In this document: piece after piece, positions 747 to 22,397 of the stretch
Layout: each line of letters begins with the position of its first letter
Position numbering within the stretch: position 1 is the stretch's first letter
NCBI GenBank assembly: GCA_024280835.1
Contig: JAJRPJ010000018.1
Location: 5,390 to 69,389 of the forward strand
Direction of reading: 5' to 3'
DNA length: 64,000 nt
Origin: Candidatus Zixiibacteriota bacterium
GTDB lineage: Bacteria; Zixibacteria; MSB-5A5; GN15; JACZUZ01
Position numbers and translations under genes: made by a program
The notes under the pieces: generated by a model
The model's input: only the letters and a program-made list of their open reading frames with translations
Database searches by the model: none
Told to the model about the DNA's origin: nothing

Positions 747-1466
747 TTATTCTGTTAGGGCGTAGGCCAGTAAATTGACGCCCATTTTTAGCGCCGCAAG
801 ACGTTTTTCCTGCGGATCATGATGCACTTGTGGATCTTCCCAGCCATCGCCAATATCTGATTCGATGAGAAAATAGACCGCTACTCGTCCGTCGAGCAAA
901 ATCGCAAATCCCTGTGCTGGGCGATTGTCGTGCTCATGGATTTTCGGTGGACCATCTGAGAATTCATAATATGAATGATAGATCGGATGTGAAAACGGTA
1001 ATTCTACTAATTCTCTATCTGGGTATAGATGCTGTAGTTCGTCTTTGACACCAGCGGCCATGCCGTAGGAGTCATTGATAAACAGGGTCCCTCCCGCGGC
1101 AAGATAGGAGCGTAGGCGCTCTCGGTCGGTTTCACTGAATCGCATTTTGCCGTGACCTGTAGCAAACAAAAACGGATAGTCAAACAATTCTGCATCAGAG
1201 ATCGCCACACGGCCCTCGATCGTATCTACTGGCCAATTGGTATTGTCACGAACAAAACGTAGGAAATTAGGCAGGGCCGAAGAACCCCAATACCAATCAC
1301 CACCGCCCGTATAATGTAACCTCGCCACCGAAACCGCTGCTGGAGCTGAATCAGTCCCATTTTTCCCCTGAGCAACAGTCTGAATCGGGCTGGCCAGAGA
1401 CAATGCCAAGGACAATGCCAGAGAGAAGTAGAGCGTGCTTGAAAGAATGGCAAAACGAGTTTTCAT
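747..1466 (-). CDS. DUF4159 domain-containing secreted protein (Bat/aerotolerance-neighbourhood family)
   Basis: Track ORF 747..1553. The core LHYTGGGDWYWGSSALPNFLRFV...YPFLFATGHGKMRFSETDRERLRSYLAAGGTLFINDSYG matches my memory of DUF4159. I prefer the internal ATG at 1466 (MKTRFAILSSTLYFSLALSLALSLASP), which gives a clean signal peptide. Confidence 0.75.
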   Translation of the reverse strand: MKTRFAILSSTLYFSLALSLALSLASPIQTVAQGKNGTDSAPAAVSVARLHYTGGGDWYWGSSALPNFLRFVRDNTNWPVDTIEGRVAISDAELFDYPFLFATGHGKMRFSETDRERLRSYLAAGGTLFINDSYGMAAGVKDELQHLYPDRELVELPFSHPIYHSYYEFSDGPPKIHEHDNRPAQGFAILLDGRVAVYFLIESDIGDGWEDPQVHHDPQEKRLAALKMGVNLLAYALTE

Positions 1467-2026
1467 ACTATTTTCCAAAAGTTGATATTCCAAATGCTGG
1501 TTCTGTAACTGGTTTCGTATCAGAGACAAACATACACTATAATATACTATCAAAATCGGAAAATGGACTGGATTTTTTGCAGGTTCACCTAAGATTCTCG
1601 ATAAAACTTGAAAAGGTCTTTAGATAGAGTTTAGTAGCGCAACTCTGACCATTTCAGCCCCCATGACATTACGAGCGCCCAGAAACGCGAAAACACTGTT
1701 TCAATTTGGAATCACCCATACCTATGGGGCGTTCCCTGTACTTTTTTCGCACATCGCCAGATAATCATTGCCAGTGGTCCAGGGATCAACCGCATATCCG
1801 CGCCACAAATCAATTGGCGGCTCAGCAGTAAGCGCTTGTCGAACAACGCATTAACAGAGCTTGCAGCTTTGCTATGTGTTTTTGTTAGTAACTTTTGGCT
1901 TATTCTGTGATTTGGGCAGTCGAATTGACACGTTGTAAAGCAGGTAATGATGAGAACTGGGCTATTTGCTCTTTCACAGAATAATTCTTTCAGAATATAA
2001 TTCGTTTAGAAGATGAGGTCAGCCGC

Positions 2027-2467
2027 ATGAAACGAACAGAGACGCTTCCCGAGAGCGAATCACCACTCAGCGCCATGCATCAAAAAGCCCATTGCCAAAA
2101 GGGTGTCACGATGCTGGAGGTAATGATCAGCATTTTGATTCTGACCATTGGTATTCTTGGCTTGGCTCCACTGATTGGAATCGCTGTACACAATAATTCA
2201 TATGCAAATGAATTGACTGTCGCTAATGCCTTGGCCCAAAAAGAAATTGAATCTTTAGTGGCTCAACCAAACTATGGCTCGTTACCAATGACCGATACTC
2301 GCGATTCAGTTTCGGGTGTCTTTCGTGTGAGTCGTCGAGTTGATGACAATAGTGTACTTGGATCTATTCCATCTGGCATATACAAACTCAGCGTGAAGAT
2401 TGAATGGGTCGACGCAAAACAAAAGAGTCGTTCACTAGACTATTCAATTTTCAAACCTAAGTCATAG
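2027..2467 (+). CDS. pilV: type IV pilus minor pilin, PilV-like (prepilin-type N-terminal cleavage/methylation domain)
   Basis: Class III signal QKG|VTMLEVMISILILTIGILGL, with Gly at -1 and Glu at +5. GAGG sits 8 nt upstream of the ATG. First gene of a three-gene pilin operon. Confidence 0.75.
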   Translation: MKRTETLPESESPLSAMHQKAHCQKGVTMLEVMISILILTIGILGLAPLIGIAVHNNSYANELTVANALAQKEIESLVAQPNYGSLPMTDTRDSVSGVFRVSRRVDDNSVLGSIPSGIYKLSVKIEWVDAKQKSRSLDYSIFKPKS

Positions 2468-2475
2468 GGGAAAAT

Positions 2476-3339
2476 ATGATGATGAATATGCAAACGAGAA
2501 AAAAGATAGTTGGAAATAGTGAGGGTGGCTTCACTATTGTCGAAGTTCTATTAGCGACGTTCCTAACCAGCATAATTGGAATCGCTGCGCTCAATTTTTA
2601 TGCTGCCGAGCATAACTCCCTGATAACGCAACAGAATGTTTCGGATATGCAGCAGAATCTTCGCGCTAGTATCGACGAAGTAACTCGTCACTTACGCAAC
2701 GCTGGCGCTAATCTGCCAGATGGCATTCAGGCGTTGGAAATGAGTGACACTAATCCAGACACTTTGACAGTACGATATGCGCCATTTGGAGGCGCTCTGA
2801 GTGTCGGCGACCACACTCAGAAGAAGCAAGCGGCTCCTATTCATGTAGCCAAGGGCTCAGACCTGAGCATGTTTGAAGTAGGTATGAAAGTACAATTGTG
2901 GCATGTCGGCAGTAGTACGCCAGAGTGGTTCACAATCACAAAAATTTCTACCAATAACGGTGTTGGTTGGGAAGAGATTCATCACCAAGGACAAGCGTTT
3001 CTGGAAGATCCACAAGTCGGCGACAAAATACTTATACTCAACGAATTGAAGTACTTTATCAATAATGCGGATACAGCCAATCCGCTCTTTATGCAGCAGC
3101 GCAATGGGGCAACACCAGAAGTTTATGCGGACAACATTAGCGACTTCCAGATGAGTTTCTTGCGTACCCTCTTAGACACAGTGACAACTTTGACTCCAGC
3201 GGATACTGCCATCATTGGATTTGTCTCGATGTCCGCACATACGGCGCAAATCGACCACGATATGAAAGATCTGGGCAATGACGGACGCCGTCATCGTTCG
3301 CTCAATTCAGAAGTTACAATTAGGAATCACATTCAATAG
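2476..3339 (+). CDS. pilW: type IV pilus minor pilin, PilW-like
   Basis: SEGG|FTIVEVLLATFLTSIIGIAAL prepilin motif with Glu at +5. Size (287 aa) and position after the PilV-like gene fit PilW. Confidence 0.75.
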   Translation: MMMNMQTRKKIVGNSEGGFTIVEVLLATFLTSIIGIAALNFYAAEHNSLITQQNVSDMQQNLRASIDEVTRHLRNAGANLPDGIQALEMSDTNPDTLTVRYAPFGGALSVGDHTQKKQAAPIHVAKGSDLSMFEVGMKVQLWHVGSSTPEWFTITKISTNNGVGWEEIHHQGQAFLEDPQVGDKILILNELKYFINNADTANPLFMQQRNGATPEVYADNISDFQMSFLRTLLDTVTTLTPADTAIIGFVSMSAHTAQIDHDMKDLGNDGRRHRSLNSEVTIRNHIQ

Positions 3340-3390
3340 GTATAGCATTTAAGACATTCGGAAGTATAACGGTATTAGGAGGCGATAACT

Positions 3391-5496
3391 ATGTTACATG
3401 AACGAATACACAGTAGGATTCGCAAGCTATTGCAGAATGAGAACGGAAGCGCACTGATTGTTTCAATCTCTGTGTTACTTATGGCTTCAATTGTCGCCAT
3501 GCAGATGTTCGCTGTCTCTAGTGATGATATGAACATTTCATTTAATAATCAGGATGCCACACGCGCATTGTACTCCGCCGAGTCTGGAGTGGCTTTGGCT
3601 CATTCGCAATTGTGGAATGACTATTTGAACTGGACATCGACGAGTCCACCAAAAACCGCTGGACAAGCAGGTAATAAGTCCACCTATGAAAAGTTTTTGA
3701 CTACACTAAATCTTCCAGATAGTGGTAAAATCTTGTTGGCCTCGGCTATGGATCTTAGCGCACATGACAGAATTGACTCGGTCTATGTTGAGCGCCGTGA
3801 TGAAAACGGTGGTATCAACTTGTTGGTCACTTCTGTCGGCGGTTCAAACGAACATGGACAACAGGTGATTAAATCTATGTTGCGTGTTCAGGGTGGCGCT
3901 TTTAAGGGCTTTGAGTTTGCAGTTTTAGCAAACAATATCAATTGCATCATGTGTCACGCAACATTTGACAATGTTGACCGTGTCTACAACACAGATGTTG
4001 GACAGCAGGGAACTTATGATAGGGTTAAAATCGCTTCTCTTGAGTCCATGCTCTTGCGCGCCGGCAAGGCAGATTCCAAAATTGCTGGAACGCTATACAC
4101 TCGTGGAATAGTGACTGACAAGGCGGGTAATCCGATAACTGATCTCTCCCCCACTGGCATGGGTTTAGATGGGTTTGACTTCAACAGCACTGATGGAAAA
4201 ATTGTTGAGCCAATGACCGCAGTGAAACTGAGCGATGCAACAGGATCACCACTGCCAACATTCGGAAACCTCTACATGAACTACCCGACTGATGCGGCAG
4301 ATATGACCGATGGAAACTTGCCAGACAAGTTCCCACCGCCTTTCCCAGATATCAACGGTAACAAATATGTTGATGACGCCGAGTATGACGATGTAGCCGC
4401 TGCGTCCACTGGTATGATAACTGGAGGTGTCATTTATGGTGTCTCAGGTGGCTCTACATATTCTGGAAGTGGTCTGCCAGGAGCTGGAAACATAGCCAGT
4501 GTTAGTGGAAGCTACAACGGCAATCTAATTCTGGTCGGTACTGACGCAAACCCGATCAATCTCAACAGTGTAATCGCGGTCGATGGAGATGTTATTATCC
4601 AAGGCAAAGTCGAAGGAACTGGTCAAATCATCGCTCGAGGAAATGTCTATATCACTGGGGATCTGACATACAATGACGGCAACATTGCAGGCGCTCGTAC
4701 ATTTGGAAAACAGCAAAGCGGCGCTACCAATACTATCTCCATAGCCGCTGGAAATAACATTCTCGTTGGAGATTATCTAACACCCAAGAAGGGTGACATT
4801 CTGGATAACAGTGTAATCGATCCAGGAAACCTCTCTGGCGGCGAACAGTTTTCATTTGCCATGTCTGAGGTCACGCTCTTCAACAGAGGTGAATGGGCCA
4901 AGACACAAGCAACGCTACCAGATGTCAATGGCTCGATGCAATCAAACCCAACATTCGAGCCATCATATCAACCACGTTATTATGTCATGAATCCTGGTGA
5001 CCCTGTCTATATGTTTAACAAGAGCTACCAGGATTCTAAGGGTAAAGAAAAGGGAACATATTTTGATCCAGTAACAATGAGCTGGAAGGGTAAAGAGCAC
5101 ACAAGTAGTTACGATCTTAATACACTAACTATGCTCAACCCTGGAGATCCACAATTGACTGGCGCAACTATTAACGCTCTCAGTTCATCGAACAATTGGA
5201 TATCACCAACTCAACTTAAGGATATGTGGATTGCCGATGAAGCCACACGGCCTTCAGGGACACCATTCCAAATCGATGGCCTAATGTATACGAACAATTC
5301 CATCTTTGCGTTGTCACGCAAAGCGTCGAATACTACAGGCAAGATGATAGTCAATGGCTCAATCGTCGCGGCGGACATTGGTATGCTGGTGGGTAACGGA
5401 TTGAACCTGAATTATGACCAACGTTTGAAGAATTTCATGAAATTGCAGGATGATAGCGAAATCGGAATCGCTCAAGTGAGCTGGTACGCTCAATAA
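3391..5496 (+). CDS. large PilX-N-terminal-domain pilus protein (701 aa) with beta-helix-like G/N/D-rich region and a single CXXCH motif
   Basis: AGGAGG lies 8 nt upstream of the ATG. The N-terminus NENGSALIVSISVLLMASIVAMQMF is the PilX_N type (no Glu at +5). Repetitive segments such as VIAVDGDVIIQGKVEGTGQIIARGNVYITGDLTYNDG suggest a beta-helix. NNINCIMCHATF at nt 3943-3957 contains the only two Cys in the protein. Confidence 0.65.
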   Translation: MLHERIHSRIRKLLQNENGSALIVSISVLLMASIVAMQMFAVSSDDMNISFNNQDATRALYSAESGVALAHSQLWNDYLNWTSTSPPKTAGQAGNKSTYEKFLTTLNLPDSGKILLASAMDLSAHDRIDSVYVERRDENGGINLLVTSVGGSNEHGQQVIKSMLRVQGGAFKGFEFAVLANNINCIMCHATFDNVDRVYNTDVGQQGTYDRVKIASLESMLLRAGKADSKIAGTLYTRGIVTDKAGNPITDLSPTGMGLDGFDFNSTDGKIVEPMTAVKLSDATGSPLPTFGNLYMNYPTDAADMTDGNLPDKFPPPFPDINGNKYVDDAEYDDVAAASTGMITGGVIYGVSGGSTYSGSGLPGAGNIASVSGSYNGNLILVGTDANPINLNSVIAVDGDVIIQGKVEGTGQIIARGNVYITGDLTYNDGNIAGARTFGKQQSGATNTISIAAGNNILVGDYLTPKKGDILDNSVIDPGNLSGGEQFSFAMSEVTLFNRGEWAKTQATLPDVNGSMQSNPTFEPSYQPRYYVMNPGDPVYMFNKSYQDSKGKEKGTYFDPVTMSWKGKEHTSSYDLNTLTMLNPGDPQLTGATINALSSSNNWISPTQLKDMWIADEATRPSGTPFQIDGLMYTNNSIFALSRKASNTTGKMIVNGSIVAADIGMLVGNGLNLNYDQRLKNFMKLQDDSEIGIAQVSWYAQ

Positions 5497-5539
5497 TTCT
5501 CGAAACACTACATATTTTTTGACACAGAGAGAGTCACTG

Positions 5540-5577
5540 AATCCCTCCAAAAGCAATTTTGGAGGGATTTTTGTTTG
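5540..5577 (+). terminator. rho-independent terminator of the pilin operon
   Basis: aatccctccaaaa (5540-5552) pairs with ttttggagggatt (5557-5569) around a gcaa loop, followed by tttgtttg. Confidence 0.7.
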
Positions 5578-5664: not shown

Positions 5665-6135
5665 ATGAAACCCTGCCTTGAGACAAAGACATCAAGAGTA
5701 TCCAAGCGACGGTCAATAGAAACTGTTCGTAAGGCTATGCGCGCAGTGCGCAGCAAAAACACAGCCCCAGAGCTGGCGCTTCGCAAAGCTCTCTGGAGCC
5801 GAGGGTTTCGATATCGCCTACACAAGAAAACTCTTCCAGGGAAACCTGATTTAGTGTTTCCCTCAAAGCGGATTGCATTGTTTATTGATGGAGACTATTG
5901 GCATGGGCGCCAATGGGAAAAGCGTGGCTTTGTTTCTTTGGAAGCGCAAATGAGTCGGGTCAATAATTCCGCTTACTGGATTAAGAAAATCAGCGGTAAT
6001 ATCATTCGCGACAAGAGAAACAATTGTGAACTACGCTTGTTAGGTTGGACAGTTATTCGGATTTGGGAAAGTGATCTCAAAACAAATCACGAGAAAGTTG
6101 TTGAAAAAGTAATCACCAAACTGGAATCTTCATGA
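5665..6135 (+). CDS. vsr: very short patch repair endonuclease (T/G mismatch-specific)
   Basis: RSKNTAPELALRKALWSRGFRYRLHKKTLPGKPDLVFPSKRIALFIDGDYWHG is the canonical Vsr core. The stop overlaps the dcm start (ATGA at 6132-6135). Confidence 0.9.
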   Translation: MKPCLETKTSRVSKRRSIETVRKAMRAVRSKNTAPELALRKALWSRGFRYRLHKKTLPGKPDLVFPSKRIALFIDGDYWHGRQWEKRGFVSLEAQMSRVNNSAYWIKKISGNIIRDKRNNCELRLLGWTVIRIWESDLKTNHEKVVEKVITKLESS

Positions 6136-7154
6136 ACATGTTACAAGACGCCTCCACAATTGCTTGTAGCACGAACATAGCGCCAAGCGATCAAGCAAAA
6201 GATACAATTCGCATTATTGATCTTTTTTGTGGTATCGGTGGTTTTCATTTGGGCGTCACTAACGCCGCCTCAGAGTTTGACAAAAATGTCGAGTGCGTCT
6301 GGGCTTGTGATATTGACCGCTGGGCTCGTGAGACATATCAAGCTAATTTTGGCGTTGAACCTCATGGTGATATTACTCAAGTCACAGCAGAGGATATTCC
6401 TGACCACGACTTGCTTTGCGCTGGATTTCCTTGTCAGTCGTTTAGTGTCTTCGGTAAGATGCGCGGCTTTGACGATACGCGCGGTACTTTGTTCTTTGAC
6501 ATTGCTCGCATTCTTGAAGCTAAACGCCCCGCTTTGTTTATTTTGGAAAACGTCAAACAATTAGTGACGCATCATGGTGGCAAAACTATCTCTGTGATCT
6601 TGGACACCCTGCGTTCTTTGGATTATTCTGTGGAGTTTCGTGCACTCGATGCACGTGATTTTGGATTACCACAAAAGCGTGAGCGGGTAATTTTTGTTGG
6701 CAGGCGTAATGACTTATTTTCTGACAACGCCACTGCGTTTCAGTGGCCTGAAAAGAAAATTCCAATGCAACCATTGGCTACTATCTTGGAAGAGGGTGTC
6801 GCCGAGAAATATTATACTAGTGAACGAATCCGCGCTTCTCGCAAAGCTAGCGTCAATAGCGCTTCAGTAGCAGATAGCTCACCCAAAATTTACCATGAAA
6901 ACAAATCAGGGCATGTTTCGGCCTATCCTTTTGCCTGTGCGCTACGTTCAGGCTCCAGCCATAATTATTTATTGGTTAATGGCGAGCGACGTTTGACAGA
7001 GCGTGAGTTGTTGCGTTTGCAGGGCTTTCCTGATTCATTCCAAGTTACAGCCAGTTATACACAAACTCGCCGTCAAACTGGGAATGCAGTCCCAGCTCCG
7101 ATGATTGAAGCTGTCGCCAGAGAATTGTTGCGCAGTTTTCCTCCATCCACTTAG
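6132..7154 (+). CDS. dcm: DNA (cytosine-5)-methyltransferase
   Basis: C5-MTase motifs occur in the expected order: I DLFCGIGGF, IV GFPCQSFS, VI FILENV, VIII QKRERVIFVG, X TGNAVPAPM. Confidence 0.92.
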   Translation: MNMLQDASTIACSTNIAPSDQAKDTIRIIDLFCGIGGFHLGVTNAASEFDKNVECVWACDIDRWARETYQANFGVEPHGDITQVTAEDIPDHDLLCAGFPCQSFSVFGKMRGFDDTRGTLFFDIARILEAKRPALFILENVKQLVTHHGGKTISVILDTLRSLDYSVEFRALDARDFGLPQKRERVIFVGRRNDLFSDNATAFQWPEKKIPMQPLATILEEGVAEKYYTSERIRASRKASVNSASVADSSPKIYHENKSGHVSAYPFACALRSGSSHNYLLVNGERRLTERELLRLQGFPDSFQVTASYTQTRRQTGNAVPAPMIEAVARELLRSFPPST

Positions 7155-7256: not shown

Positions 7257-10200
7257 TTATTGACTCAAGGCTAGCCGTCGTTTGAGTTTGCGCTCTTCGA
7301 TTATTGAATACAAAACTGGAACGGTGAAAATTGTTAGTAGCGCCACTGTCATGCCACCGAATGACGGGATGGCCATCGGAATCATAATATCTGACCCACG
7401 TCCAGTTGAGGTTAGGATTGGCAGAAGCGCCAACAAGGTTGTGGCGGTGGTCATCAACGCCGGTCTTATTCTGCGCTGCGACCCTTCGACAACGCTGTGG
7501 CGAACTTCTTTGATTGTCTTCGGTTTGTTGCGTGCGAAACTTTGATCTAGGAAAGCTGAAATGACAACTCCATTGTCTGTGGCGATTCCAAAAAGCGCCA
7601 AGAAACCCACCCAAACAGCAACAGACAGATTAATCTGATGCATGTTGAACAGTTCTCGCATGTTTTCGCCAAAAAAACTGAAATTCATAAACCAGCCCTG
7701 ACCATAGAGCCAGATCATGATGAAACCACCCGACCAAGCAACAAAGACGCCAGCAAAAACAAGTAGTGTCGTCAAAATTGATTTGAATTGTAGATACAGA
7801 ATGAACATGATTACCAAGAGCGCAATCGGAACCACAAGAGATAGGGTTTTCATTGCGCGGATTTGATTTTCATAGGAACCAGCGAATTTATAGTTTACTC
7901 CATTGGGAATTATCAATTCCCCGTCGTCTATTTTCAATTGCAAGTATGCCTGTGCCTCTTCAACAACATCCACCTCGGCATGGCCAGGTTTCTTGTCAAA
8001 AAGCACATAGCCAGTTAGGAATGTGTCCTCGCTCTTGATGTTTTGTGGACCACTAACATAATTGATGGTCGCAAGTTGTTCAAGTGGTATTTGAGCGCCA
8101 TCTTTGGTCGGAACCAGAATGCGTCCCAAGCTCTCTAAGTCATCACGCAACTCACGCAAGTATCGCACACGAACAGGATAACGTTCACGACCTTCGACCG
8201 TCATCGTGATGGGCTTGCCGCCCACAGCCACTTCAATGACCGACAGAGCATCATCGAGTTTGATACCATAACGGGCAATGGCCTCACGGTCAATTTCGAT
8301 TTCTAGATACGGCTTGCCAATTATTCTATCTGCGAAGACAGAGGGTGGATTGACTGATGGAACTTCTTTGAGAAAGCGCTCCATTTGGACACCGACATCT
8401 TCAATGACCTTCAAATTGGGACCTTTGACCTTAATCCCCATCGGGGCGCGCATTCCACTTTGGAGCATCACCAAACGCGCGGCTATCGGCTCCAAAAATG
8501 GCGCTGATGTCACACCCGGAAGTTCTGTGACTCCTATCAAAGCATCCCAAATGTCACGGCTACTCGTGATACCCGCCCATGCCTCTCGGTCATCATTGAG
8601 CGTTGGGTCGAGAGCTTTGCGCCAGAGGCGGAATGGGAATCCGTCTTCATCTGGGATTAGCCTACCCGATGCATCACGCAAGAACTTTCCACGCACTAAG
8701 TACGGCTCCCCATCTGGGGCGGAAACAGGTTCGCCTTTGAGGTTTCGAAAGAGATCCTTGTCGTCTTCATCGTATTTGAAAAGCGCATTACCCGCAGAAT
8801 CCGTGTAATACTCCTTATGATAGTTCACAACTGTTTCAAACATAGAAACTGGCGCAGGGTCTAATGGACTTTCTGTTCGTCCAAGTTTTCCGACGACCGT
8901 AGTAACTTCTGGGATTGAAGCAATCATGGCATCTTGTATTGAGAGCATGTCCTTGGCCTCACCTATTCCAGCGTGTGGCATTGTCGTCGGCATGAAAAGG
9001 AACGATCCTTCTTCAAGCGGCGGCATGAACTCTTTGCCAAGACCTGGGAAGGCATGCGCGATTGAACTTATGCCTGGCGCGGTCTTCACTGCGCGCGGCA
9101 TCCAGCCGAAGACTCCATCAAATCCAATCCAAACCATAACTCCCATTAACACCAAGGCGCTTGTTGCGCTAAGGAACAATGGTCTGTGGTTGAGTACCCA
9201 GTTTAGCATCGCAACATAGTAACGCTTTAACAAATCGAACGCATAGAGCAATGTACCCATTAGGAAAAGAACAAAAGCAAAATTGATAATCTGTCCGCCT
9301 TCAATACCCAGAGGAGACCACTCTTTCGCTAACAAGCCCATGGCAATCGCAGCTGCCACTCCATTGGCGAACCAAGGCGTGTATTTCACCACTTTCGCTG
9401 GGAGACGATGAGATACTATTCTCCAGACGCCGACGACTACTAAGATTAACGCTGCCCACAACATGCCGTAAATGGCAAGCCCTATACCAACAATGACAAA
9501 CAAAGCTGGCATTGTGAATCTGACTCGCGATGAGACTTGCTTTCCTTGTGCTTTCTTGCGTATAACCAGCAGCGCTTGGGCAAATGCAGGAATGACAGTC
9601 AAAGCCACTACTACAGACGCGATGAGCGCGAATGTTTTTGTGTAAGCCAAAGGTTTGAAGAGCTTGCCTTCAGATGCAACCATTGTAAAGACAGGCAAGA
9701 AACTCACAACCGTTGTTGCGACTGCTGTTAGAACCGCGCTGCCCACTTCGTTGGCTGCTTCATAAATAACTTTGCGCATATCGGCGCCAGCTGGAGCGCG
9801 CGAGATGCCACTAATTATGTTTTCGGACATGACAATCCCCATGTCCACCATCGTTCCTATAGCAATCGCGATTCCTGATAGAGCGACAATGTTAGCGTCA
9901 ATGGCAAAGACTTTCATTGCTGCAAATGACATCAAGACGGCAATCGGCAAGAGTCCTGAAACAAGCAACGAGCTGCGCAAACTCATCAATGAAATAATGA
10001 CCACTATTATGGTCACCAAAATCTCTAGTGTCAGCGCTTCATCCAGAGTCTCCAGTGTCTCGTGAATCAATTCTGAACGATCATAGAATGGCACGATTTT
10101 TAATTGACTGACTCTTCCATCGGACAATGTTTTCGTCGGCAAACCTGGCGATATTTCGGCTATCTTTTGTTTTAGATTTTTGATAGCCGCCAACGGATTT

Positions 10201-11189
10201 GCTCCATAGCGCACAACGGCGACACCGCCGACTGCCTCGGCTCCACCTTTATCAAGAGCGCCACGTCTTGGCTGAGGCCCAAAGACAACTTGAGCTACAT
10301 TTTTGACATAGATTGGCGTTGTGCCTTCGACTCGAATCACAGCGTTTTCTATATCCGAGAGGTTCTTGATAAATCCTAAACCCCGAATGATATATTCAAC
10401 GCCATTGACTTCGATTGTCCGTGCACCGACGTCATTGTTGGCCATTTTGACGGCATGGAAGACATCACTGAGTTTCACACCATAGGCGCGCATGGCATCC
10501 GGGTCGACGTCAATTTGATATTCGCGCACATAGCCACCAACTGAGGCCACTTCACTGATACCATCGACTGCTTGTAGCCCATAGCGGACATAGAAATCCT
10601 GTGTTGAACGAAGTTCATCAAGATTCCAGCCACCAGTTTGCTCGCCAGTTTCGACATCAAACCCTTCCAGTGTATACCAATATACTTGTCCAAGACCTGT
10701 GGCATCAGGGCCTAGAGCTGGTGACACGCCAGGCGGTAGTGTATTCGACGGAAGACTGTTAAGTTTTTCAAGTATCCTCGAACGTGACCAATAGAAATCT
10801 ACATTTTCTTTGAAAATAACATAGATCGATGAAAATCCGAACATTGAAAAACTACGGACAGTTTTTACATCCGGCAGACCTAGCAATGAAACCGTCAGCG
10901 GATACGAAACTTGATCTTCAATATCCTGCGGCGAATGACCTGGCCAATTAGTGAAAACAATTTGCTGGTTTTCGCCAATATCCGGAATTGCATCCACAGG
11001 GACAGGATCACGAGGCAAGCCACCGACATCCCAATCGAATGGCGCTACCATCACTCCCCAAAGCATCAACGCAGCTGTCAAAGCGCCAACAATGAACTTA
11101 TTGTCAATGCAAAACAGGATGAGTTTGCCGATCAAACCCTTGGGAACAATCTCCTCAACAGGGTTTGCGTTATTGTTTGGTTCAGCCAT
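7257..11189 (-). CDS. cusA: CusA/CzcA-family heavy-metal efflux RND permease, long form (1310 aa)
   Basis: Typical RND N-terminus (LIGKLILFCIDNKFIVGALTAALMLWG), periplasmic porter domains and TM bundles. Last gene of an operon with TolC-like and CusB-like genes. It is longer than the roughly 1040-aa canonical form I remember. Confidence 0.9.
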   Translation of the reverse strand: MAEPNNNANPVEEIVPKGLIGKLILFCIDNKFIVGALTAALMLWGVMVAPFDWDVGGLPRDPVPVDAIPDIGENQQIVFTNWPGHSPQDIEDQVSYPLTVSLLGLPDVKTVRSFSMFGFSSIYVIFKENVDFYWSRSRILEKLNSLPSNTLPPGVSPALGPDATGLGQVYWYTLEGFDVETGEQTGGWNLDELRSTQDFYVRYGLQAVDGISEVASVGGYVREYQIDVDPDAMRAYGVKLSDVFHAVKMANNDVGARTIEVNGVEYIIRGLGFIKNLSDIENAVIRVEGTTPIYVKNVAQVVFGPQPRRGALDKGGAEAVGGVAVVRYGANPLAAIKNLKQKIAEISPGLPTKTLSDGRVSQLKIVPFYDRSELIHETLETLDEALTLEILVTIIVVIISLMSLRSSLLVSGLLPIAVLMSFAAMKVFAIDANIVALSGIAIAIGTMVDMGIVMSENIISGISRAPAGADMRKVIYEAANEVGSAVLTAVATTVVSFLPVFTMVASEGKLFKPLAYTKTFALIASVVVALTVIPAFAQALLVIRKKAQGKQVSSRVRFTMPALFVIVGIGLAIYGMLWAALILVVVGVWRIVSHRLPAKVVKYTPWFANGVAAAIAMGLLAKEWSPLGIEGGQIINFAFVLFLMGTLLYAFDLLKRYYVAMLNWVLNHRPLFLSATSALVLMGVMVWIGFDGVFGWMPRAVKTAPGISSIAHAFPGLGKEFMPPLEEGSFLFMPTTMPHAGIGEAKDMLSIQDAMIASIPEVTTVVGKLGRTESPLDPAPVSMFETVVNYHKEYYTDSAGNALFKYDEDDKDLFRNLKGEPVSAPDGEPYLVRGKFLRDASGRLIPDEDGFPFRLWRKALDPTLNDDREAWAGITSSRDIWDALIGVTELPGVTSAPFLEPIAARLVMLQSGMRAPMGIKVKGPNLKVIEDVGVQMERFLKEVPSVNPPSVFADRIIGKPYLEIEIDREAIARYGIKLDDALSVIEVAVGGKPITMTVEGRERYPVRVRYLRELRDDLESLGRILVPTKDGAQIPLEQLATINYVSGPQNIKSEDTFLTGYVLFDKKPGHAEVDVVEEAQAYLQLKIDDGELIIPNGVNYKFAGSYENQIRAMKTLSLVVPIALLVIMFILYLQFKSILTTLLVFAGVFVAWSGGFIMIWLYGQGWFMNFSFFGENMRELFNMHQINLSVAVWVGFLALFGIATDNGVVISAFLDQSFARNKPKTIKEVRHSVVEGSQRRIRPALMTTATTLLALLPILTSTGRGSDIMIPMAIPSFGGMTVALLTIFTVPVLYSIIEERKLKRRLALSQ

Positions 11190-11190
11190 A

Positions 11191-11592
11191 CTAGTGATCC
11201 TTGTGCTCTTGACCAGTTACTTTGTTGTCTGTTGCTTTGGTGTTTGATTCTTTTGTGCCTTTGAAGACTCTCTTGGAAATACCGCACTTCAACATTTTGG
11301 TCCCATAGTATGGGTTCTGCGAATTACTGTCTCTCTGGAGCCATAGAGCGCCTTCGCCATCAAACGCCATTGGGCAGAAGAATTGATAGACAGAATTGTC
11401 ACCTACACCGTAGTTGTCCGCATAGGCAGTGATAGACATGGTCACGTGTTCAAAGTTCACCCGCGTTGAGCTAAGATCCTTTGAGCCAGCTACCAATTTT
11501 GAGGCTCTGAGGGCTTGGTTGGTGAGAGAGTCGAAGGTTGAATTGCCTTGGGCGGCTGAGCGGTCAACGGTAAAATCCATTAACACTTTCAT
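11191..11592 (-). CDS. DUF3347-type putative metal-binding protein (C-terminal part of the domain)
   Basis: YQFFCPMAFDGEGALWLQRDSNSQNPYYGTKMLKCG matches the CPM...WL...NPY.G..ML.CG signature I recall for DUF3347. The track start at 11595 is TTG. An ATG at 11592-11590 shares one base with the cusB TGA stop (TGATG). Confidence 0.7.
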   Translation of the reverse strand: MKVLMDFTVDRSAAQGNSTFDSLTNQALRASKLVAGSKDLSSTRVNFEHVTMSITAYADNYGVGDNSVYQFFCPMAFDGEGALWLQRDSNSQNPYYGTKMLKCGISKRVFKGTKESNTKATDNKVTGQEHKDH

Positions 11593-13142
11593 CAACTTCC
11601 ATTGGAGGATTGTGCCGCCTCAAAATCGTCAGAACGTAGAGCTTCTTGTAAGTCAAAATAGTTTTCAAAGGCTGGACTCAAGTCCTTCGGCGCTTTCATC
11701 GACTTCATTGATTTCATCGAAGTTTTCTTCGACGCTTTGTTAGACTTCCGACTGGCAGTTGAATCACTCATTTTCATACTGCTGTTGCTGCCCATACTAC
11801 CATGGTCATGCCCACTTTTAGGCCCGCCGCCAGAGGCGTACATCATGCTTGGCTTGGCTTGAATCTGCATAGCCGCATCAATCTTGAATGCGCCTTTAGT
11901 GACAATCAGCTCACCTTCTTCAAGTCCTTCTTTGACTATATACATGTTCGCGCTACGCGCTCCGAGAACCACTTCACGTCCACTGAATGACGACGGCTTA
12001 TTTGCATCTTGCACATAGACAAGCGCTCGTTTGCCAGTTATTAACGGCGCACTCGCAGGAATCACTAGTGGTATACCCGATTCTGCAGTTTCGATGTCCG
12101 AATAGGCGATAGCATGGGCGAACATACCAGGCTTGAGACGACCGTTTTCATTGTTGACTTCGACACGCGCTCGTACAGTTCGTGATTTAGGATTCAATGT
12201 TGGATCGATAAAAGTAATCTGGCCTACGAATGTTTCTCCAGGATAAGTATTGGTGGTGAAAGTTACTTCTTGCTTGAGACGCAGATGATTTAAGTCTGAT
12301 TCATAGGCGTCAAGCGATAGCCAAACAGTTGATAAATCAGCCAGAGTAAATATTCTCGTTCCTGATTTAACATAATCGCCTTCGGTTCTATTGCGAGTAA
12401 TCACTACACCTTCGAGTGGGGAGTAGATTGTTATACTCTCACGAATTACACCAGTCTTCTCTAGTTTGGCGATTTGCTTTTTTGTGATACCCCACAAACG
12501 CAATTTATCTCTGGCAGCGGCGATTGTAGTTTCTGCGCTCTCACGCACTACGGCGAGACGACTGGCACGTAGCTCATCGCGTGACACTAGAGCCTGAAGG
12601 AGTTCCTCTTGGGCTGAGATCAATTCAGGGCTGTAGATTTCCGTCATTGGCTCGCCCTTTTTAACAGTCACACCTGTGAAATTCACAAATAACTTTTCGA
12701 TTCTACCTGGGAACCAAGCATTGATATTTCTTTGTTTGGTTTCGTCATATTCAACTAAGCCGACCATACGCACTTCTCGAGTGACAACGTGACGCTCAAC
12801 TGGCGTAACTTGAACGCTTGCCAACCGACGGGCGTTTTCTCCGAGAACAATTGAGCGTTCGCCGCCGTCATCAACGCTAACAGTCGCTGGTATCAAATCC
12901 ATGCCACATATCGGACAGGCGCCAGCCTCTGGCATACGAATTTGGGGGTGCATTGAACATGTCCAAACTGTCGCTTGCTCAGCGCCATTGTCGGCCAGCA
13001 TTGTAGTGTTAGATTTTGATTGGGTATCGTTGTCACTTGAACTGCATGCGCTCAAGGAGACTGTTAGACCGATAGCGGCAATCAATGCTAAAACCCTTAT
13101 CGCGCTGTGAGCGCGTCCTGTCTGTTTCATAATTCTCTTCAT
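11592..13142 (-). CDS. cusB: efflux RND periplasmic adaptor, CusB-like, with N-terminal heavy-metal-binding domain
   Basis: WTCSMHPQIRMPEAGACPICGMDLIP is the metal-binding motif common in CusB proteins. It is followed by HlyD-type lipoyl/beta-barrel sequence, and an S/K/M-rich tail. Confidence 0.85.
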   Translation of the reverse strand: MKRIMKQTGRAHSAIRVLALIAAIGLTVSLSACSSSDNDTQSKSNTTMLADNGAEQATVWTCSMHPQIRMPEAGACPICGMDLIPATVSVDDGGERSIVLGENARRLASVQVTPVERHVVTREVRMVGLVEYDETKQRNINAWFPGRIEKLFVNFTGVTVKKGEPMTEIYSPELISAQEELLQALVSRDELRASRLAVVRESAETTIAAARDKLRLWGITKKQIAKLEKTGVIRESITIYSPLEGVVITRNRTEGDYVKSGTRIFTLADLSTVWLSLDAYESDLNHLRLKQEVTFTTNTYPGETFVGQITFIDPTLNPKSRTVRARVEVNNENGRLKPGMFAHAIAYSDIETAESGIPLVIPASAPLITGKRALVYVQDANKPSSFSGREVVLGARSANMYIVKEGLEEGELIVTKGAFKIDAAMQIQAKPSMMYASGGGPKSGHDHGSMGSNSSMKMSDSTASRKSNKASKKTSMKSMKSMKAPKDLSPAFENYFDLQEALRSDDFEAAQSSNGS

Positions 13143-13196
13143 CTTAATATTTCTTTCTTGTATTTCGTAAAACTATCAGATTACCAAACGTTTCTA

Positions 13197-14570
13197 TTAA
13201 TTGGTTAGCTTGGCTCCAACAAGCGCCTCAATATTGGCGAGACTTTGTCTATGGATTGTCAATGAGCGTTCTAATGCTAGTAAATAGCCGAACAGCTCTC
13301 TTTGCAATTCTATTAGATTACGAAAATCCGTTTTTCCCGTCTGAAACTCTCGCTGGGTAACTGTCAGCGCTTGAGTCGCTCGGGGAATCATGGCATTCTC
13401 GTAAAGATCAATTTTTCGCAAAGCATTGCGATACATAAATAGCTTGGCGGAAAGCTCTGCAGAGAGCATGTTCTCTGTTTCTCTCCGAGATTCAAGCGCC
13501 GAGCGATTACGCGACTTGGCTTCGCGCTTTTCAGCTTTGTATTTCCCAAACCAAATTGGCAAACTCAAGCCGACTTTTGCAATAATCGGATCTTTGCCAC
13601 TTTCAAAAACACTTGAATTCAGAGCGTCATTGGTTTGAATGTAATCGACACCAAAAGTCAGATTTGGCGCCGCTCCACGATTGGCCAATTTCATGCCAGC
13701 GATTGTAGCGAGAACTAACTTGTCGCGCTCATGTAATACTGGGCTGCGTTCAACCGCCAGTTCCAATACCGCATCATCACTAATTGTCATCGACCTAACT
13801 ATTGGCTCGGTGTTCAACGCTACAATTGCATTGGGCTGACGATCTAGAACAGAATTGAATGCCACCAAGAGAGTGGCATACCGTTCCTTCTGGGTTTGCA
13901 AATCATCCGATAGACGCGCTTGCTCAATTTGCACTTGCGCCAATTTCCCTTGTGAGAGCAGGGCCGAACTATACTTCGCTAGGGCCACATTTTCCCATTC
14001 GTTGACTAGTGACAAGTGGTCTTGAACAATCGCAATTGATTTATCGATATAATAAAGCTCAAAATATATATTTGTAACCTGAGCTTCTAATTGCAATTTA
14101 CGAGCAATATATCTCTGCTCAGCGGCATTGGCTTTTTCGAGAGCGACTGATTTTCGCAATCCAAGTTTTCCAAACCAAGGCATTGACTGACTCAGAGAAA
14201 ATTTGCGCTGCTGCGCTCCAACCCGAGTTTCTACAGACTCAAATTGCTCAGCAAAGCCAATCTTCGGGTCTGGCAAAGCGCCCACTTGGGGCGCACGCGC
14301 CAATTCCGCTTGCCAGCGATGGAAAGCTGCGCTGATAGCGGGAGAATTCTCATCTGCATAGGACAAATAATCCGACAATGTCGATTCTTCACTCAGGGCT
14401 ATCGAACCTTCGTCTAAACGCTGCGCATTTGCAATTCCATAGACAAACGGAATCAGCATCAATCCGAGAACAATCGCACTTCGCAAATAGTATTTCAAAC
14501 AATTTTCGGTTTTGACTTTTGTGATAAACACAGTCACTTCTTTCCTCTCCATGATGCGGCATTGCATCAC
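13197..14570 (-). CDS. TolC-family outer membrane efflux protein (CusC-like)
   Basis: Two-repeat coiled-coil outer membrane efflux protein pattern, located immediately upstream of cusB. The true start may be an internal Met (MERKEV...). Confidence 0.8.
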   Translation of the reverse strand: MMQCRIMERKEVTVFITKVKTENCLKYYLRSAIVLGLMLIPFVYGIANAQRLDEGSIALSEESTLSDYLSYADENSPAISAAFHRWQAELARAPQVGALPDPKIGFAEQFESVETRVGAQQRKFSLSQSMPWFGKLGLRKSVALEKANAAEQRYIARKLQLEAQVTNIYFELYYIDKSIAIVQDHLSLVNEWENVALAKYSSALLSQGKLAQVQIEQARLSDDLQTQKERYATLLVAFNSVLDRQPNAIVALNTEPIVRSMTISDDAVLELAVERSPVLHERDKLVLATIAGMKLANRGAAPNLTFGVDYIQTNDALNSSVFESGKDPIIAKVGLSLPIWFGKYKAEKREAKSRNRSALESRRETENMLSAELSAKLFMYRNALRKIDLYENAMIPRATQALTVTQREFQTGKTDFRNLIELQRELFGYLLALERSLTIHRQSLANIEALVGAKLTN

Positions 14571-15686: not shown

Positions 15687-16187
15687 TCAGAAAATCACAT
15701 CGATAAGACAAACCACATCGCTTATCTCTATGCGGCCGTTGCTGTTACAATCGCCCTGCTCGAGGCATTCAATGGCCTCCCCGCCTAGGAAGATATAGCT
15801 TATCAGAGCCACGATATCTGAGACATTTATGCGGCCATCATTGTTGACGTCATTTTGAACAGAACTACATAACGTAGAGCAACCTTCAGTTATCGTGTTT
15901 TGCCTTATACAACGACTCGAACAACCGCAAAAATAATTTGAGTCATGCCGACCAGTCACGTGCACTCGATCGCCTGCGCCAAAGCCAAAGTAATTATCGA
16001 GCGAGTAGATTCCTGGGTGATGATCTGGTGCAAAAACAAGACAGCCATCATTGGTTAGTCGCAATGACCCGCAATCATCAAAATTACCAGCCGCCCATAA
16101 GCTACTTGCACTGAACATCAGAGCCAGAGAAATGGCCCCAACGCTTGAAATCATTCTTGTAAGAAGTGTCTGTTTGTGAATCATCAT
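15687..16187 (-). CDS. small Cys-rich secreted protein with C-terminal dockerin-like module
   Basis: Signal peptide ISLALMFSASSLWAAG. The C-terminus carries duplicated EF-hand-like loops: DVNNDGRINVSDIVALISYIF and GDCNSNGRIEISDVVCLIDVIF. Confidence 0.6.
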   Translation of the reverse strand: MMIHKQTLLTRMISSVGAISLALMFSASSLWAAGNFDDCGSLRLTNDGCLVFAPDHHPGIYSLDNYFGFGAGDRVHVTGRHDSNYFCGCSSRCIRQNTITEGCSTLCSSVQNDVNNDGRINVSDIVALISYIFLGGEAIECLEQGDCNSNGRIEISDVVCLIDVIF

Positions 16188-16451
16188 AATTTGAATTGGT
16201 CGAAGAATGTCTTTAGAAGGAGCAATCAGCTCCGCTCGAAAACAATGATATTGAGCGCCGTAATCGGTAAGTTCTTGTGAAGAAGTGTTTCTGTGAGGAA
16301 AATTATCCTGAGACCGGAGTGACTCAGAATTACAGCAAACAATTAGTATTCAGACAGGTCTAAGACTTCTCTGCCGTCAAATTATACTCAACGCCCCGTA
16401 AAAGGTCAAATACATTTTTCCCAGCTCGTCGACTGGCCCATAGGCTCACAT

Positions 16452-16494
16452 ACAAGAAATCAAGAAGAGCAGGGTCAGTTTCCTAACCCTGCTC
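16452..16494 (-). terminator. rho-independent terminator of the 963-aa gene
   Basis: gagcagggt (16467-16475) pairs with accctgctc (16486-16494). On the minus strand the hairpin is followed by ttcttgatttctt. Confidence 0.6.
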
Positions 16495-16519
16495 TCGCAA
16501 TCAAATTCTGAAAACTTCA

Positions 16520-19851: not shown

Positions 19852-20859
19852 CTATGCGCCTGGCTTGTGGACTGTCCAGATGGAGTCAGTGAAGAAACGC
19901 CGTGAATCGAAAAGCATTTTGTTCACTCGAAAACCAGTTTCGGCAGCAAGAACCTTGACTTCAGACTCAAGATATTTGTAGGAATATTCAGTGTGAATAG
20001 GCTCCCATTCGCGGAAACTAAAAGAACGTCCGATTGTCTCTATATAGACATCCTGATCTTCCATACTGACTAAGAAACTTTCCATCGCGCCATTGAAGAC
20101 ATTATAGGTTCCATAGTGTCGGAACTTATTCAAATCAAATGTTCCACCAAGTTCACGGTTGATCCTGACAAGCAAATTCAAATTGAATTGCGCAGTGACA
20201 CCAGCTACGTCATTATAGGCTAGTAGTAGCGCTTCAATATCTTTCTTCAAATCGAAACCAGTTAGGAGACAATCTTCGTGATTCAATGAGTTCCAAACAT
20301 TGCGCAAGAATGTTCGGGCGCCCGCATGGTTAAAGTTCCCGATGCTTGAGCCAAGGAACAAGACGAAATTGCGTCGTTCATTGCGATTGTTGAGCCATTT
20401 GATACCATTGAAATATTCTGAAACTAGGCCATTGGTCTCTACTTCAGGCATTGTCTCTTTTAGGTCACTGACCAACTCTATCATGGCTCCCTCAGAGATA
20501 TCTATTGGGACGTATTGAAATTCAAGGTCAAGTTCGGTGAACCTCTTCAAGAGTATTTTTGTCTTTTCGCCAATGCCAGCGCCGAGTTCAACCAAATTGA
20601 AAGCTACACCGTTGAATTGTTGGGCGATCTCGTCTGCGTACTTGACCAGAATCTCTCGCTCACAATCTGTCGGATAGTAATCTGGCGACTTAGTGATGGC
20701 AGTAAACAATTCACTTCCAGCGCTATCATACAAATATTTTGATGATAGAGATTTATGAGTTTCAGACAAACCGACTAAGACATCAAGCGCAAAAGCTTGA
20801 TTGGCGTCGAATGAGTCCTCAAAATCTTTTGGGTCTAGTTTCTTATATGTTATAGACAT
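19852..20859 (-). CDS. egtD: L-histidine N-alpha-methyltransferase (ergothioneine biosynthesis)
   Basis: SSKYLYDSAGSELFTAITKSPDYYPTDCEREIL matches the EgtD signature (K.FYD..GS.LF..I...PEYY.TR.E..IL). Length is 335 aa, and it lies directly downstream of the EgtB-like gene. Confidence 0.85.
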   Translation of the reverse strand: MSITYKKLDPKDFEDSFDANQAFALDVLVGLSETHKSLSSKYLYDSAGSELFTAITKSPDYYPTDCEREILVKYADEIAQQFNGVAFNLVELGAGIGEKTKILLKRFTELDLEFQYVPIDISEGAMIELVSDLKETMPEVETNGLVSEYFNGIKWLNNRNERRNFVLFLGSSIGNFNHAGARTFLRNVWNSLNHEDCLLTGFDLKKDIEALLLAYNDVAGVTAQFNLNLLVRINRELGGTFDLNKFRHYGTYNVFNGAMESFLVSMEDQDVYIETIGRSFSFREWEPIHTEYSYKYLESEVKVLAAETGFRVNKMLFDSRRFFTDSIWTVHKPGA

Positions 20860-20993
20860 GTGCCGTTACTTATTCTCTTGAGTGTGATTTGTGAGTTTGG
20901 GCGGGATTTGAGATGACTCAATCAGATGTATATTGTTTTGAAATTTCAGATTGAGCCAAGTTTGAACTGAGCCTTAATTAAATTGAATCTTCC

Positions 20994-22397
20994 TTAAACA
21001 TTGTCTGCCAAGCGAATTCCAGTCATCTGCCAGCGTTTGTCACATTGGAAAAAGCTTCTATATGTTGTGCGCACGTGTGACTTAGGTGTCAGACATGACC
21101 CACCGCGAAGAACCATCTGGTCGGACATAAACTTGCCATTATACTCACCCAATGGTCCAGCTTCTTGCTTGTAACCAGGATATGCTAAGTAAGAACTAGC
21201 AGTCCACTCCCAAACATCACCAAACATTTGACTAAGTGACATATCGTTTTTTCCGCAAACTGGATTATCGGCTGTCGGATGTAAGATGCTTTTTTCAACA
21301 AAATTGCCATCACGTTGGATTTCATCAAGAGTCTCGGCGGCGAATTCCCACTCCATTTCTGTTGGTAGGCGTTTTCCAGCCCAACGGGCGAAAGCCCAGC
21401 TTTCGTAGTAACTAACATGACAGACTGGCTCAGCGAGGTTCAATGGCCGCGTTCCCGAAAGTGTATTGATTGTCCAACCTGATTCTGTCTTTTCCCAATA
21501 CATCGGATGGCGCCATATCTTGCTCGGTACCCTCCCCCAAGCATCGGCAAGCCAGAGACTAGGGTTATCGTATCCGCCATCATTGATAAACTCAAGAAAC
21601 TCCCCACAGGTGACTAGGCGAGGCAATAGCTTGAAGTCCTCAAGATATACTTTGTGACGTGGCGATTCATTGTCGTAGGTAAACTTTGCTCCGCTGGAGT
21701 CTGCGTTATCGGCTCCGACTTCGACTAGGCCGCCTTTGAAGGTCAGATAATGATTACGAAGGAAAGGTGTCTTATCATTTGAAGTTGACGCAACAGGCTC
21801 TAAGTAAGCTGGCTGTAGGGGATTTGAAGCGAAGACATGCTTGATATCACTCAGTAACAATTCTTGATGCTGCTGCTCGTGATTAAAACCAATTTTGAAT
21901 AGAGAATATATTTCGTTCCATGACTTTTCAGCAACGGTTGCAATAAATTTCTCTACTCGCTCATCTATCGCCGCACGGTATTCCATTATTTCTGGAACAG
22001 TTGGACGCGACAATGTTCCACGCAGGGGACGATCCGCCTGTTGGCCAAGCGAATTATAATAAGAATTGAAGATGTAATAATATTTCTCGTTAAAGGGGCG
22101 GTAATTGGGGCTGAACTGCTGGAGTATTACTCGCTCGAAGAACCACGTTACATGCGCCAAGTGCCATTTAGCGGGGCTCGTATCGTCCATTGACTGGACA
22201 ACACAATCCTCTGGTTGCAGGGGCGCGGCCAGCTTCTTGGTTTGCGCCCTGACAGCCTTGAACTCTTCTAATAGTTCTTTGCGGCACTGGTCGATAGATT
22301 CAATTGCTTGCGACATGTCATTTACCTGTTCTGTATACCTGGTTTCCCAGCAATCCTTCTGCTTTTGTATATTGGTAAAATAAATTTCATCAGTCAA
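20994..22397 (-). CDS. egtB: ergothioneine biosynthesis sulfoxide synthase EgtB (DinB_2 + FGE-sulfatase domains)
   Basis: SPAKWHLAHVTWFFERVIL is the DinB-type iron site. GDVWEWTASSYLAYPGYK...VLRGGSCLTPKSHVRTTYRSFF is the FGE-like domain. At 467 aa with no fused methyltransferase domain, it is EgtB rather than OvoA. Confidence 0.85.
   Translation of the reverse strand: MTDEIYFTNIQKQKDCWETRYTEQVNDMSQAIESIDQCRKELLEEFKAVRAQTKKLAAPLQPEDCVVQSMDDTSPAKWHLAHVTWFFERVILQQFSPNYRPFNEKYYYIFNSYYNSLGQQADRPLRGTLSRPTVPEIMEYRAAIDERVEKFIATVAEKSWNEIYSLFKIGFNHEQQHQELLLSDIKHVFASNPLQPAYLEPVASTSNDKTPFLRNHYLTFKGGLVEVGADNADSSGAKFTYDNESPRHKVYLEDFKLLPRLVTCGEFLEFINDGGYDNPSLWLADAWGRVPSKIWRHPMYWEKTESGWTINTLSGTRPLNLAEPVCHVSYYESWAFARWAGKRLPTEMEWEFAAETLDEIQRDGNFVEKSILHPTADNPVCGKNDMSLSQMFGDVWEWTASSYLAYPGYKQEAGPLGEYNGKFMSDQMVLRGGSCLTPKSHVRTTYRSFFQCDKRWQMTGIRLADNV

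Follow-up and report, generated by a model that had tools for sequence, protein, structure and literature searches.

A conserved C-x-x-C-H motif, a putative haem c site, in the large tip-type subunit of a three-gene minor-pilin operon of Candidatus Zixiibacteriota

Introduction

Minor-pilin tip complexes determine the binding targets of a type IV filament and the time of its assembly. The known tip complexes use calcium, disulfides or accessory proteins, and none was found described with a prosthetic group. The subject of this work is a three-gene minor-pilin operon of Candidatus Zixiibacteriota (assembly GCA_024280835.1, contig JAJRPJ010000018.1, positions 5,390–69,389), and in particular its large last gene, at positions 3391–5496 of this 64-kilobase (kb) stretch of DNA, which is termed the window. 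The product of 701 amino acids (aa) contains one C-x-x-C-H motif, a putative site of covalent haem c attachment, which is conserved in relatives from several bacterial phyla. Attention had been drawn to the motif by an earlier note, made from the nucleotide letters and their translations, in which a haem-bearing minor pilin or tip subunit was suggested.

The closest described structure is that of ComZ, a competence-pilus tip pilin of Thermus thermophilus. ComZ has a GspK-like pilin domain into which a beta-solenoid of ∼380 residues is inserted before the last strand, and its authors argued that a placement is possible at the pilus tip only (PMC6561018). The 701 aa protein is similar in several respects: it has a very large beta-solenoid set late in a GspK-type pilin fold, it is of a kind missed by standard pilin predictors, and its gene lies beside those of small minor pilins (PMC6561018). 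It differs from ComZ in that its conserved ANN[IV]NCxxCH block does not align to the Thermus protein, for which DNA binding via two lysines, but no haem or metal, has been reported (PMC6561018). Properties shared with GspK and PilX are a leader with a conserved Gly, a helix without Glu5, an extra domain in the pilin sheet, and a position as the last gene of an I-J-K series. The GspK insert, however, is alpha-helical, about 100–150 residues in length and located between strands 3 and 4 (PMC6561018), whereas the one described here is a beta-solenoid of about 500 residues.

With respect to the motif, the nearest described case is TfcP of Myxococcus xanthus, a non-canonical cytochrome c encoded in a minor-pilin/PilY1 cluster, whose haem serves protein stability and not respiration (PMC8833165). 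TfcP resembles the 701 aa protein in being a single C-x-x-C-H protein that is genetically tied to a minor-pilin set. But TfcP is a small, soluble periplasmic protein which is not built into the pilus, and which has a recognisable cytochrome c domain, a distal Cys ligand and a type I signal peptide (PMC8833165). In contrast, the 701 aa protein has a prepilin-type leader, carries the motif inside a pilin subunit, and displays neither a cytochrome domain nor a third conserved Cys. The role of haem in TfcP shows that a cytochrome c can serve tip-complex formation without electron transfer.

In full-text searches of the literature no haem-bearing pilin was found described, the nearest being TfcP, a separate soluble protein. 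A likeness is also seen in Cyc2-type cytochrome-porins, which carry one C-x-x-C-H on a large beta-rich, non-cytochrome scaffold that is taken to the cell surface. These differ in being outer-membrane beta-barrels that have the motif near the mature N-terminus and function in iron oxidation, and no kinship in sequence or fold is claimed. The scaffold of the 701 aa protein is already known, both from minor pilins of the GspK/PilX position and from the ComZ-type solenoid insert; what is new is the invariant haem motif inside a pilin subunit. If biochemistry confirms the haem, this would be the first haem-carrying pilus subunit found described.

Conservation of the C-x-x-C-H motif

The gene and its motif have the following locations in the window.

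3391–5496, plus strand: large tip-type minor pilin in the GspK/PilX/ComZ position (the 'K' subunit), 701 aa, with C-x-x-C-H; from the open reading frame (ORF), profile matches, AlphaFold and Foldseek
3943–3957, plus strand: C185-I-M-C188-H189, putative covalent haem c site; from conservation, and a short helical turn in the model
3901–3960, plus strand: most conserved 20-residue block, FKGFEFAVLANNINCIMCHA, residues 171–190; from bits per column

The protein has two Cys in total, C185 and C188, and both are part of its single C-x-x-C-H (CIMCH, with H189; nucleotides 3943–3957), which lies inside NNINCIMCHATF. This count, given in the earlier note, was confirmed on the ORF translation. The number of C-x-x-C-H motifs expected in the protein is 5.7e-5 from its own composition and 1.5e-3 from a generic composition. 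Among window ORFs of at least 100 aa, no second C-x-x-C-H was found, the 701 aa ORF being the only one to have it. The one other occurrence in the window, CAKCH at 22153, belongs to an open frame of 93 codons located inside the limits of a minus-strand EgtB-like gene.

A homologue search of 5.8 billion proteins gave 141 matches, and the best 120 of the 141 were used. These are 30–100% identical to the 701 aa protein, and come from metagenome bins labelled Zixibacteria, Methylomirabilales, Planctomycetota and Hydrogenedentes. Exactly one C-x-x-C-H is present at the homologous position in 119 of these 120 best matches. The exception, P0030, is a shortened gene call that starts with MCHAT; its genomic locus (L012) has the full ANNVNCIMCHAT, located behind an in-frame stop codon. 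In alignments of 120 and of 109 sequences, with a mean column identity of 28%, no variation is seen at C185, C188 or H189. Residues 171–190 rank first of all 20-residue windows of the protein, with 3.40 bits per column vs. a protein mean of 2.26. As a separate observation, the early in-frame stop in the large gene of L012, a Zixibacteria bin, is at about position 10140 (KNMT-stop-SFYSS) and accounts for P0030; it may be a sequencing error or signify a pseudogene.

Genomic loci show the same pattern. One genome per species, from 185,579 species, was scanned with two search patterns, one of which was without the motif; 229 relatives were detected, and 78 loci were kept. With five loci from other look-ups added, the motif is found once per gene copy in all 83 loci, including those where the gene was miscalled through a stop codon or a run of N. 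In some Planctomycetota bins (L022, L028 and L066), the large gene is present as two or three paralogues in tandem, each copy having its own C-x-x-C-H.

When 1.84 billion cluster representatives were searched exhaustively with a profile, 1366 relatives were detected, 295 of these at an expectation value (E) ≤ 1e-30. The family comprises at least 295 clusters at 50% identity, and is spread over Zixibacteria, Hydrogenedentota, Planctomycetota and Methylomirabilales. Among the best 150 representatives, 133 cover the site, and 130 of these keep the C-x-x-C-H. The site is lost in the three others, P0239 (R..VR), P0249 (R..TN) and P0251 (S..DH), which are divergent full-length relatives. Both Cys are gone together in all three and the His is gone in two, as expected for one cofactor site. 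P0251 is encoded on the sole usable contig of the three (L084, 9114–11216), where I and J genes are absent upstream.

Judged by these alignments, the C-x-x-C-H is under strong selection. A long protein can hold a single C-x-x-C-H by accident, and the earlier note had entered this as a caveat and had proposed that the C-x-x-C-H column be checked in orthologues. The check has now been run, and the site is invariant wherever it is covered, bar the three divergent relatives. With its very low expected count, its invariance at 30–86% identity across several phyla and its position in the most conserved block of the protein, a functionless chance occurrence is refuted by conservation, and its probability may be taken as negligible.

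The two conserved Cys might also act without a cofactor. In 56 of the 120 homologues they are the sole Cys of the protein, and pilins commonly rely on a disulfide. A C-x-x-C disulfide could thereby act as a redox switch that controls tip-complex assembly, with the His tuning its reactivity. However, a disulfide does not explain an invariant His directly after the second Cys in >300 sequences. In addition, the structural model described below has no thioredoxin-like unit of strand, CxxC and long helix, there is no match to a thioredoxin family, and a C-x-x-C loop, unlike the pilin D-region disulfide, cannot join distant segments. A switch of this type appears improbable.

Protein class and structural model

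The 701 aa protein begins with a basic leader, MLHERIHSRIRKLLQNENG, with a putative cut before SALIVSISVLLMASIVAMQMFA, and this is followed by a hydrophobic helix of 21–22 residues without Glu at +5. Its segments, with cleavage sites marked by a slash here and below, are as follows.

3391–3447, plus strand: basic leader ending in Gly19, putative prepilin peptidase site NG/SALIV, no Glu at +5; from alignment
3442–3900, plus strand: pilin-like domain, long helix 18–80 and four beta-strands 113–170; from AlphaFold, and a profile match to ComZ (6qvi) at E 0.015
3901–5445, plus strand: inserted beta-strand-rich (solenoid) domain, residues about 171–685, with regular rungs at about 342–460; from AlphaFold, MinC_C/FapA matches and the Foldseek match to ComZ
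5446–5490, plus strand: final beta-strand 686–700, probably equivalent to the strand that completes the pilin fold in a ComZ-type topology; from element order compared with PMC6561018

G19 is present in 107 of 108 homologues. The +5 column in the K proteins is V, F, L or A, and never Glu. The leader and membrane helix predict an N-in, C-out orientation, and the motif is accordingly predicted to be in the periplasm. The N-in, C-out orientation is that of membrane-anchored c-type cytochromes.

An AlphaFold model built on 109 sequences is confident, with a predicted local distance difference test (pLDDT) score of 93 and a predicted template modelling (pTM) score of 0.86. The order of elements is a helix at residues 18–80, four strands at 113–170, ∼500 mostly beta residues with regular solenoid rungs around 342–460, and a last strand at 686–700. 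Read from this order of secondary-structure elements, the predicted topology is that of a pilin fold with a large inserted domain. The motif forms a short helical turn between strands 178–184 and 190–194, and is therefore at the very start of the inserted domain. The model also displays the long, beta-strand-rich body that the earlier note had described as beta-helix-like, and a MinC_C/FapA-type solenoid match is found at residues 393–426. Among 65 family members, MinC_C matches 19 and FapA three.

Foldseek comparison of the model with the PDB gave ComZ as the sole significant match, with all three chains, at E 5.5e-7 to 7e-6 and a probability of 1.0; global TM-scores are low, 0.19–0.29, and identity is 9–10%. 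ComZ (6qvi) is also the top match in a PDB-sequence profile search, via the N-terminal pilin-like part only (E 0.015). Residues 160–252, compared with the PDB by phmmer, gave no match.

Profile models of minor pilins score the protein below their curated cut-offs. PilX_N matches at E 0.0064 with 16.9 bits, against a Pfam cut-off of 25.5, and T2SS_GspK (NCBIfam) at E 0.003 with 17.1, against a cut-off of 130. The PilX_N-type N-terminal helix proposed in the earlier note, although weak in this protein, is upheld at the level of the family, where PilX_N matches 19 of the 65 members with a best E of 1.9e-11. Despite these scores, the protein agrees with GspK/PilX proteins in its structural and genomic properties.

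The minor-pilin operon

The 701 aa protein is encoded in the third of three genes that are bracketed by a promoter-like site and a strong terminator.

1973–2001, plus strand: promoter-like site, TTCACA-17-TATAAT, 11 of 12 matches, a consensus match only; upstream of the three-gene operon
2027–2467, plus strand: small minor pilin in the GspI/PilV position ('I'), 146 aa; from the prepilin site G/VTMLEV, profiles, and the same place in related loci
2476–3339, plus strand: medium minor pilin in the GspJ/PilW position ('J'), 287 aa; from the prepilin site G/FTIVEV, and conserved directly upstream of the large gene
5539–5570, plus strand: intrinsic-terminator-like hairpin, 14-pair stem and T-rich tail, 43 nucleotides past the stop codon; ends the operon

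The product of 2027–2467 matches Pfam N_methyl (E 2e-6) and the NCBIfam model type_IV_pilV (E 5.4e-13, just under the cut-off). That of 2476–3339 has a weak N_methyl match, and sub-cut-off matches to a prepilin peptidase-dependent model (E 6e-7) and to GspJ. With the prepilin signals GVTMLE and GFTIVE and these PilV/GspI- and GspJ-like matches upstream, the large gene is indeed the last of a pilV/pilW/pilX-like operon, as had been proposed. The I-J-K order is kept in Zixibacteria-like, Planctomycetota-like and Hydrogenedentota-like loci (including L001, L003, L005 and clustered loci), and in the I and J partners of related loci the Gly and Glu5 are invariant. The three genes have the same guanine plus cytosine content as the window, and there is thus no sign of recent import.

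The 701 aa protein takes the GspK/PilX position in a conserved minor-pilin module of three genes. The minor-pilin or tip subunit named in the earlier note is well supported by the leader of GspK type, by the resemblance of the model to ComZ and by the conservation of the I-J-K operon. The operon itself has no genes for an H-type (FimU/GspH) pilin, PilE or PilY1. No gene for pilus machinery or a prepilin peptidase was found among the annotated ORFs of the window, and none is conserved near the loci of the family.

The motif as a putative haem site

An exported, invariant C-x-x-C-H would be best explained, from the motif itself, by haem attachment. A reference Zixibacteria genome encodes mono- and multihaem cytochromes (PMC3903129). 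Haem proteins are also encoded near family members: a dihaem peroxidase of the CCP_MauG type is located 4.5 kb from a K gene whose product is 53% identical to the 701 aa protein (L015), and a multihaem protein is encoded on the same contig as another family member (L057). As related genomes make c-type cytochromes, they must have a maturation system. Membrane-anchored apocytochromes are normal substrates of maturation, and even short exported peptides with a C-x-x-C-H receive haem from the Ccm system, which needs little beyond the motif. Accordingly, an accessible periplasmic C-x-x-C-H is expected to be modified. It is considered probable, albeit with considerable reserve, that the protein is a haem c-bearing K-type tip subunit.

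Several results weigh against a haem. Genes of the ccm or ccs type were found neither among the annotated ORFs of the window nor beside the operon in any locus, and no W-rich motif of the CcsA/CcmF type is present in any frame of the window. No cytochrome Pfam family was detected in the 701 aa protein or in any of the 65 members (E ≤ 0.01), and there is no cytochrome among the Foldseek matches in the PDB. A marginal 'cytochrome c' hit in the PDB profile search (E 0.95) was dismissed as noise. A conserved distal ligand, His or Met, was sought in the K, I and J subunits and none was found. The K alignment has no other invariant His, Met or Cys; only 23 of ∼99 wider relatives have His in the H570 column, Met and Gln are both found in the M305 column, and Met, Leu and Ile in that of M652. 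In addition, P0239, P0249 and P0251 still match the family profile over their full length without the site, and therefore the site is probably not needed for folding. By fold and domain, the 701 aa protein is outside the cytochrome c family, with which it has the C-x-x-C-H in common. Of the haem-bearing minor-pilin or tip subunit suggested in the earlier note, the pilin or tip part is well supported by leader, ComZ-like model and operon, and the haem part is read from the motif.

The lack of a detected cytochrome fold or distal ligand would be in keeping with a metal at the same place. Cys185, Cys188 and His189, possibly together with Asp662 from the exit strand, could form a structural or regulatory site for Zn, Cu or Fe that ties the solenoid entry to its exit. 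In other pilins and pseudopilins, Ca2+ or a C-terminal disulfide does a comparable tying job. According to the AlphaFold model, entry and exit of the inserted domain would have to adjoin. D662 is invariant in the 120-sequence set and, like F489 and L666, is replaced in all three sequences that have lost the Cys; two of these sequences also have replacements at R223, F314, L381, G454, F497 and Y633. These co-replaced residues are candidates for the same site, with the weak statistics of three divergent sequences. A hydrophobic pocket and an Arg among them would suit haem, and Asp662 would suit a metal. But five motif-bearing relatives have Asn at 662, so that Asp is not an obligatory ligand. 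A single ion is seldom bound by adjacent residues such as Cys188 and His189, and few exported proteins have Cys-based Zn sites. Furthermore, an exported C-x-x-C-H would be a substrate of the maturation system in related genomes. A metal site is thus judged unlikely. If a metal does bind there instead of haem, it would still represent a new way of stapling an inserted domain into a pilin fold.

Proposed role of a haem at the filament tip

With haem attachment as the preferred reading, the following mechanism is proposed. Genes 2027–5496 would be a self-contained operon for a core tip or priming trimer of I-, J- and K-type minor pilins, either of a type IV pilus or of a type II-secretion-like pseudopilus. 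The prepilin-type helix would anchor the 701 aa K subunit to the inner membrane, the remainder of the subunit being periplasmic. Like ComZ, with a large beta-solenoid inserted in the pilin fold, it would sit only at the filament tip, since by the argument of the ComZ authors an insert of this size probably leaves no other place. Before assembly of the subunit, periplasmic cytochrome c maturation would attach one haem c at the C-x-x-C-H, with His189 as proximal ligand and no fixed sixth ligand. The haem would then staple the pilin/solenoid junction together, act as a sensor of a ligand or of redox state, or do both, and would not be an electron wire.

The location of the cofactor follows from chain order: because the entry and exit chains of the insert must be adjacent, the cofactor would be placed at the pilin/solenoid junction. 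A partner pilin also binds at this junction in the docking model of ComZ (PMC6561018). The junction position, the single haem and the missing fixed sixth ligand favour a structural or sensory haem over an electron conduit.

A role in extracellular electron transfer, with a tip cytochrome offered to minerals or partner cells, had been raised in the earlier note. The relatives come from metagenome bins of sediment, groundwater and vents, Zixibacteria have Mtr-like and multihaem systems (PMC3903129), and a multihaem gene is near a family member in L057. Nevertheless, there would be one haem per subunit, placed by chain order at the pilin/solenoid junction and not at the far end of the solenoid, and the missing conserved sixth ligand is atypical of electron-transfer haems. 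No electron route along the filament is evident. No redox or multihaem partner is conserved in the neighbourhoods of the family, where conservation is limited to I, J and, in two phyla, a gene with HEAT repeats. To our knowledge, the conductive filaments that have been solved are cytochrome polymers and not pili. With one haem and no multihaem partner conserved nearby, this role found no support, and a haem that serves extracellular electron transfer is considered very improbable.

Perhaps the tip K subunit has a covalent haem with an open coordination site, and extension and retraction of the filament present a ligand-binding or redox-active haem outside the cell; this is put forward tentatively and is open to considerable doubt. 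If true, an extracellular tip haem would be a new form of cytochrome delivery to the surface, by which uncultured sediment phyla could sense O2, NO, sulfide or redox state, or exchange electrons on contact with minerals or partner cells. More generally, a tip-subunit haem conserved across uncultured phyla would, if real, be a cofactor new to pilus biology. The long-running debate of pili versus cytochromes in extracellular electron transfer would gain a case in which both are one polypeptide.

Neighbouring genes

In 33 loci of Hydrogenedentota and Planctomycetota, a gene with HEAT_2 repeats (∼305 aa, with a hydrophobic, signal-peptide-like N-terminus) is directly after I-J-K on the same strand; examples are at 12285–13190 in L001, 12227–13132 in L005 and 6395–7321 in L062. 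This gene is absent after I-J-K in the Zixibacteria group and in the window. Its product could act as a chaperone or represent a further, fourth component, and is of interest because PBS-lyase-type HEAT-repeat proteins link tetrapyrroles to cysteines. Four Hydrogenedentota-like loci also have, after the HEAT gene and on the same strand, an ORF of ∼360–416 aa with two C-x-x-C-H motifs (L074, 13478–14557; the same place in L076, L079 and L081). This ORF has a borderline Cytochrom_C match in L074 (E 4e-4) and none in L076.

On the other side of the operon, the window has an adjoining gene for a DUF4159 protein (747–1553, minus strand; E 1.7e-57), which is also found beside the module in L001, a distant Hydrogenedentota-like locus (13215–14069, minus strand). 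As it recurs in four loci only, too few to be meaningful, it was rejected as a neighbour of significance. Right after the terminator, a gene for a very-short-patch repair (Vsr) endonuclease overlaps with the beginning of a gene for a C-5 cytosine DNA methylase (5665–7154, plus strand).

Further downstream there are two groups of copper-related genes. A CusCBA-type heavy-metal efflux set (7257–14570, minus strand) encodes a 1310 aa RND pump, a membrane-fusion protein with a heavy-metal-binding domain, and an outer-membrane factor. At 15687–19411 (minus strand), a 963 aa protein with six MopE-type putative copper-binding repeats (E 4e-61) adjoins a 166 aa dockerin-domain protein. A link between these genes (Cus efflux, MopE-like repeats) and the motif was considered and rejected, as they are not conserved beside the family elsewhere.

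Genes for an EgtD-like histidine methyltransferase and an EgtB-like protein (DinB_2 and FGE-sulfatase domains) are side by side at 19852–22397 (minus strand), a pair which is the signature of ergothioneine synthesis. A mycothiol-S-transferase/DinB-like gene is found at 26910–27443 of the window.

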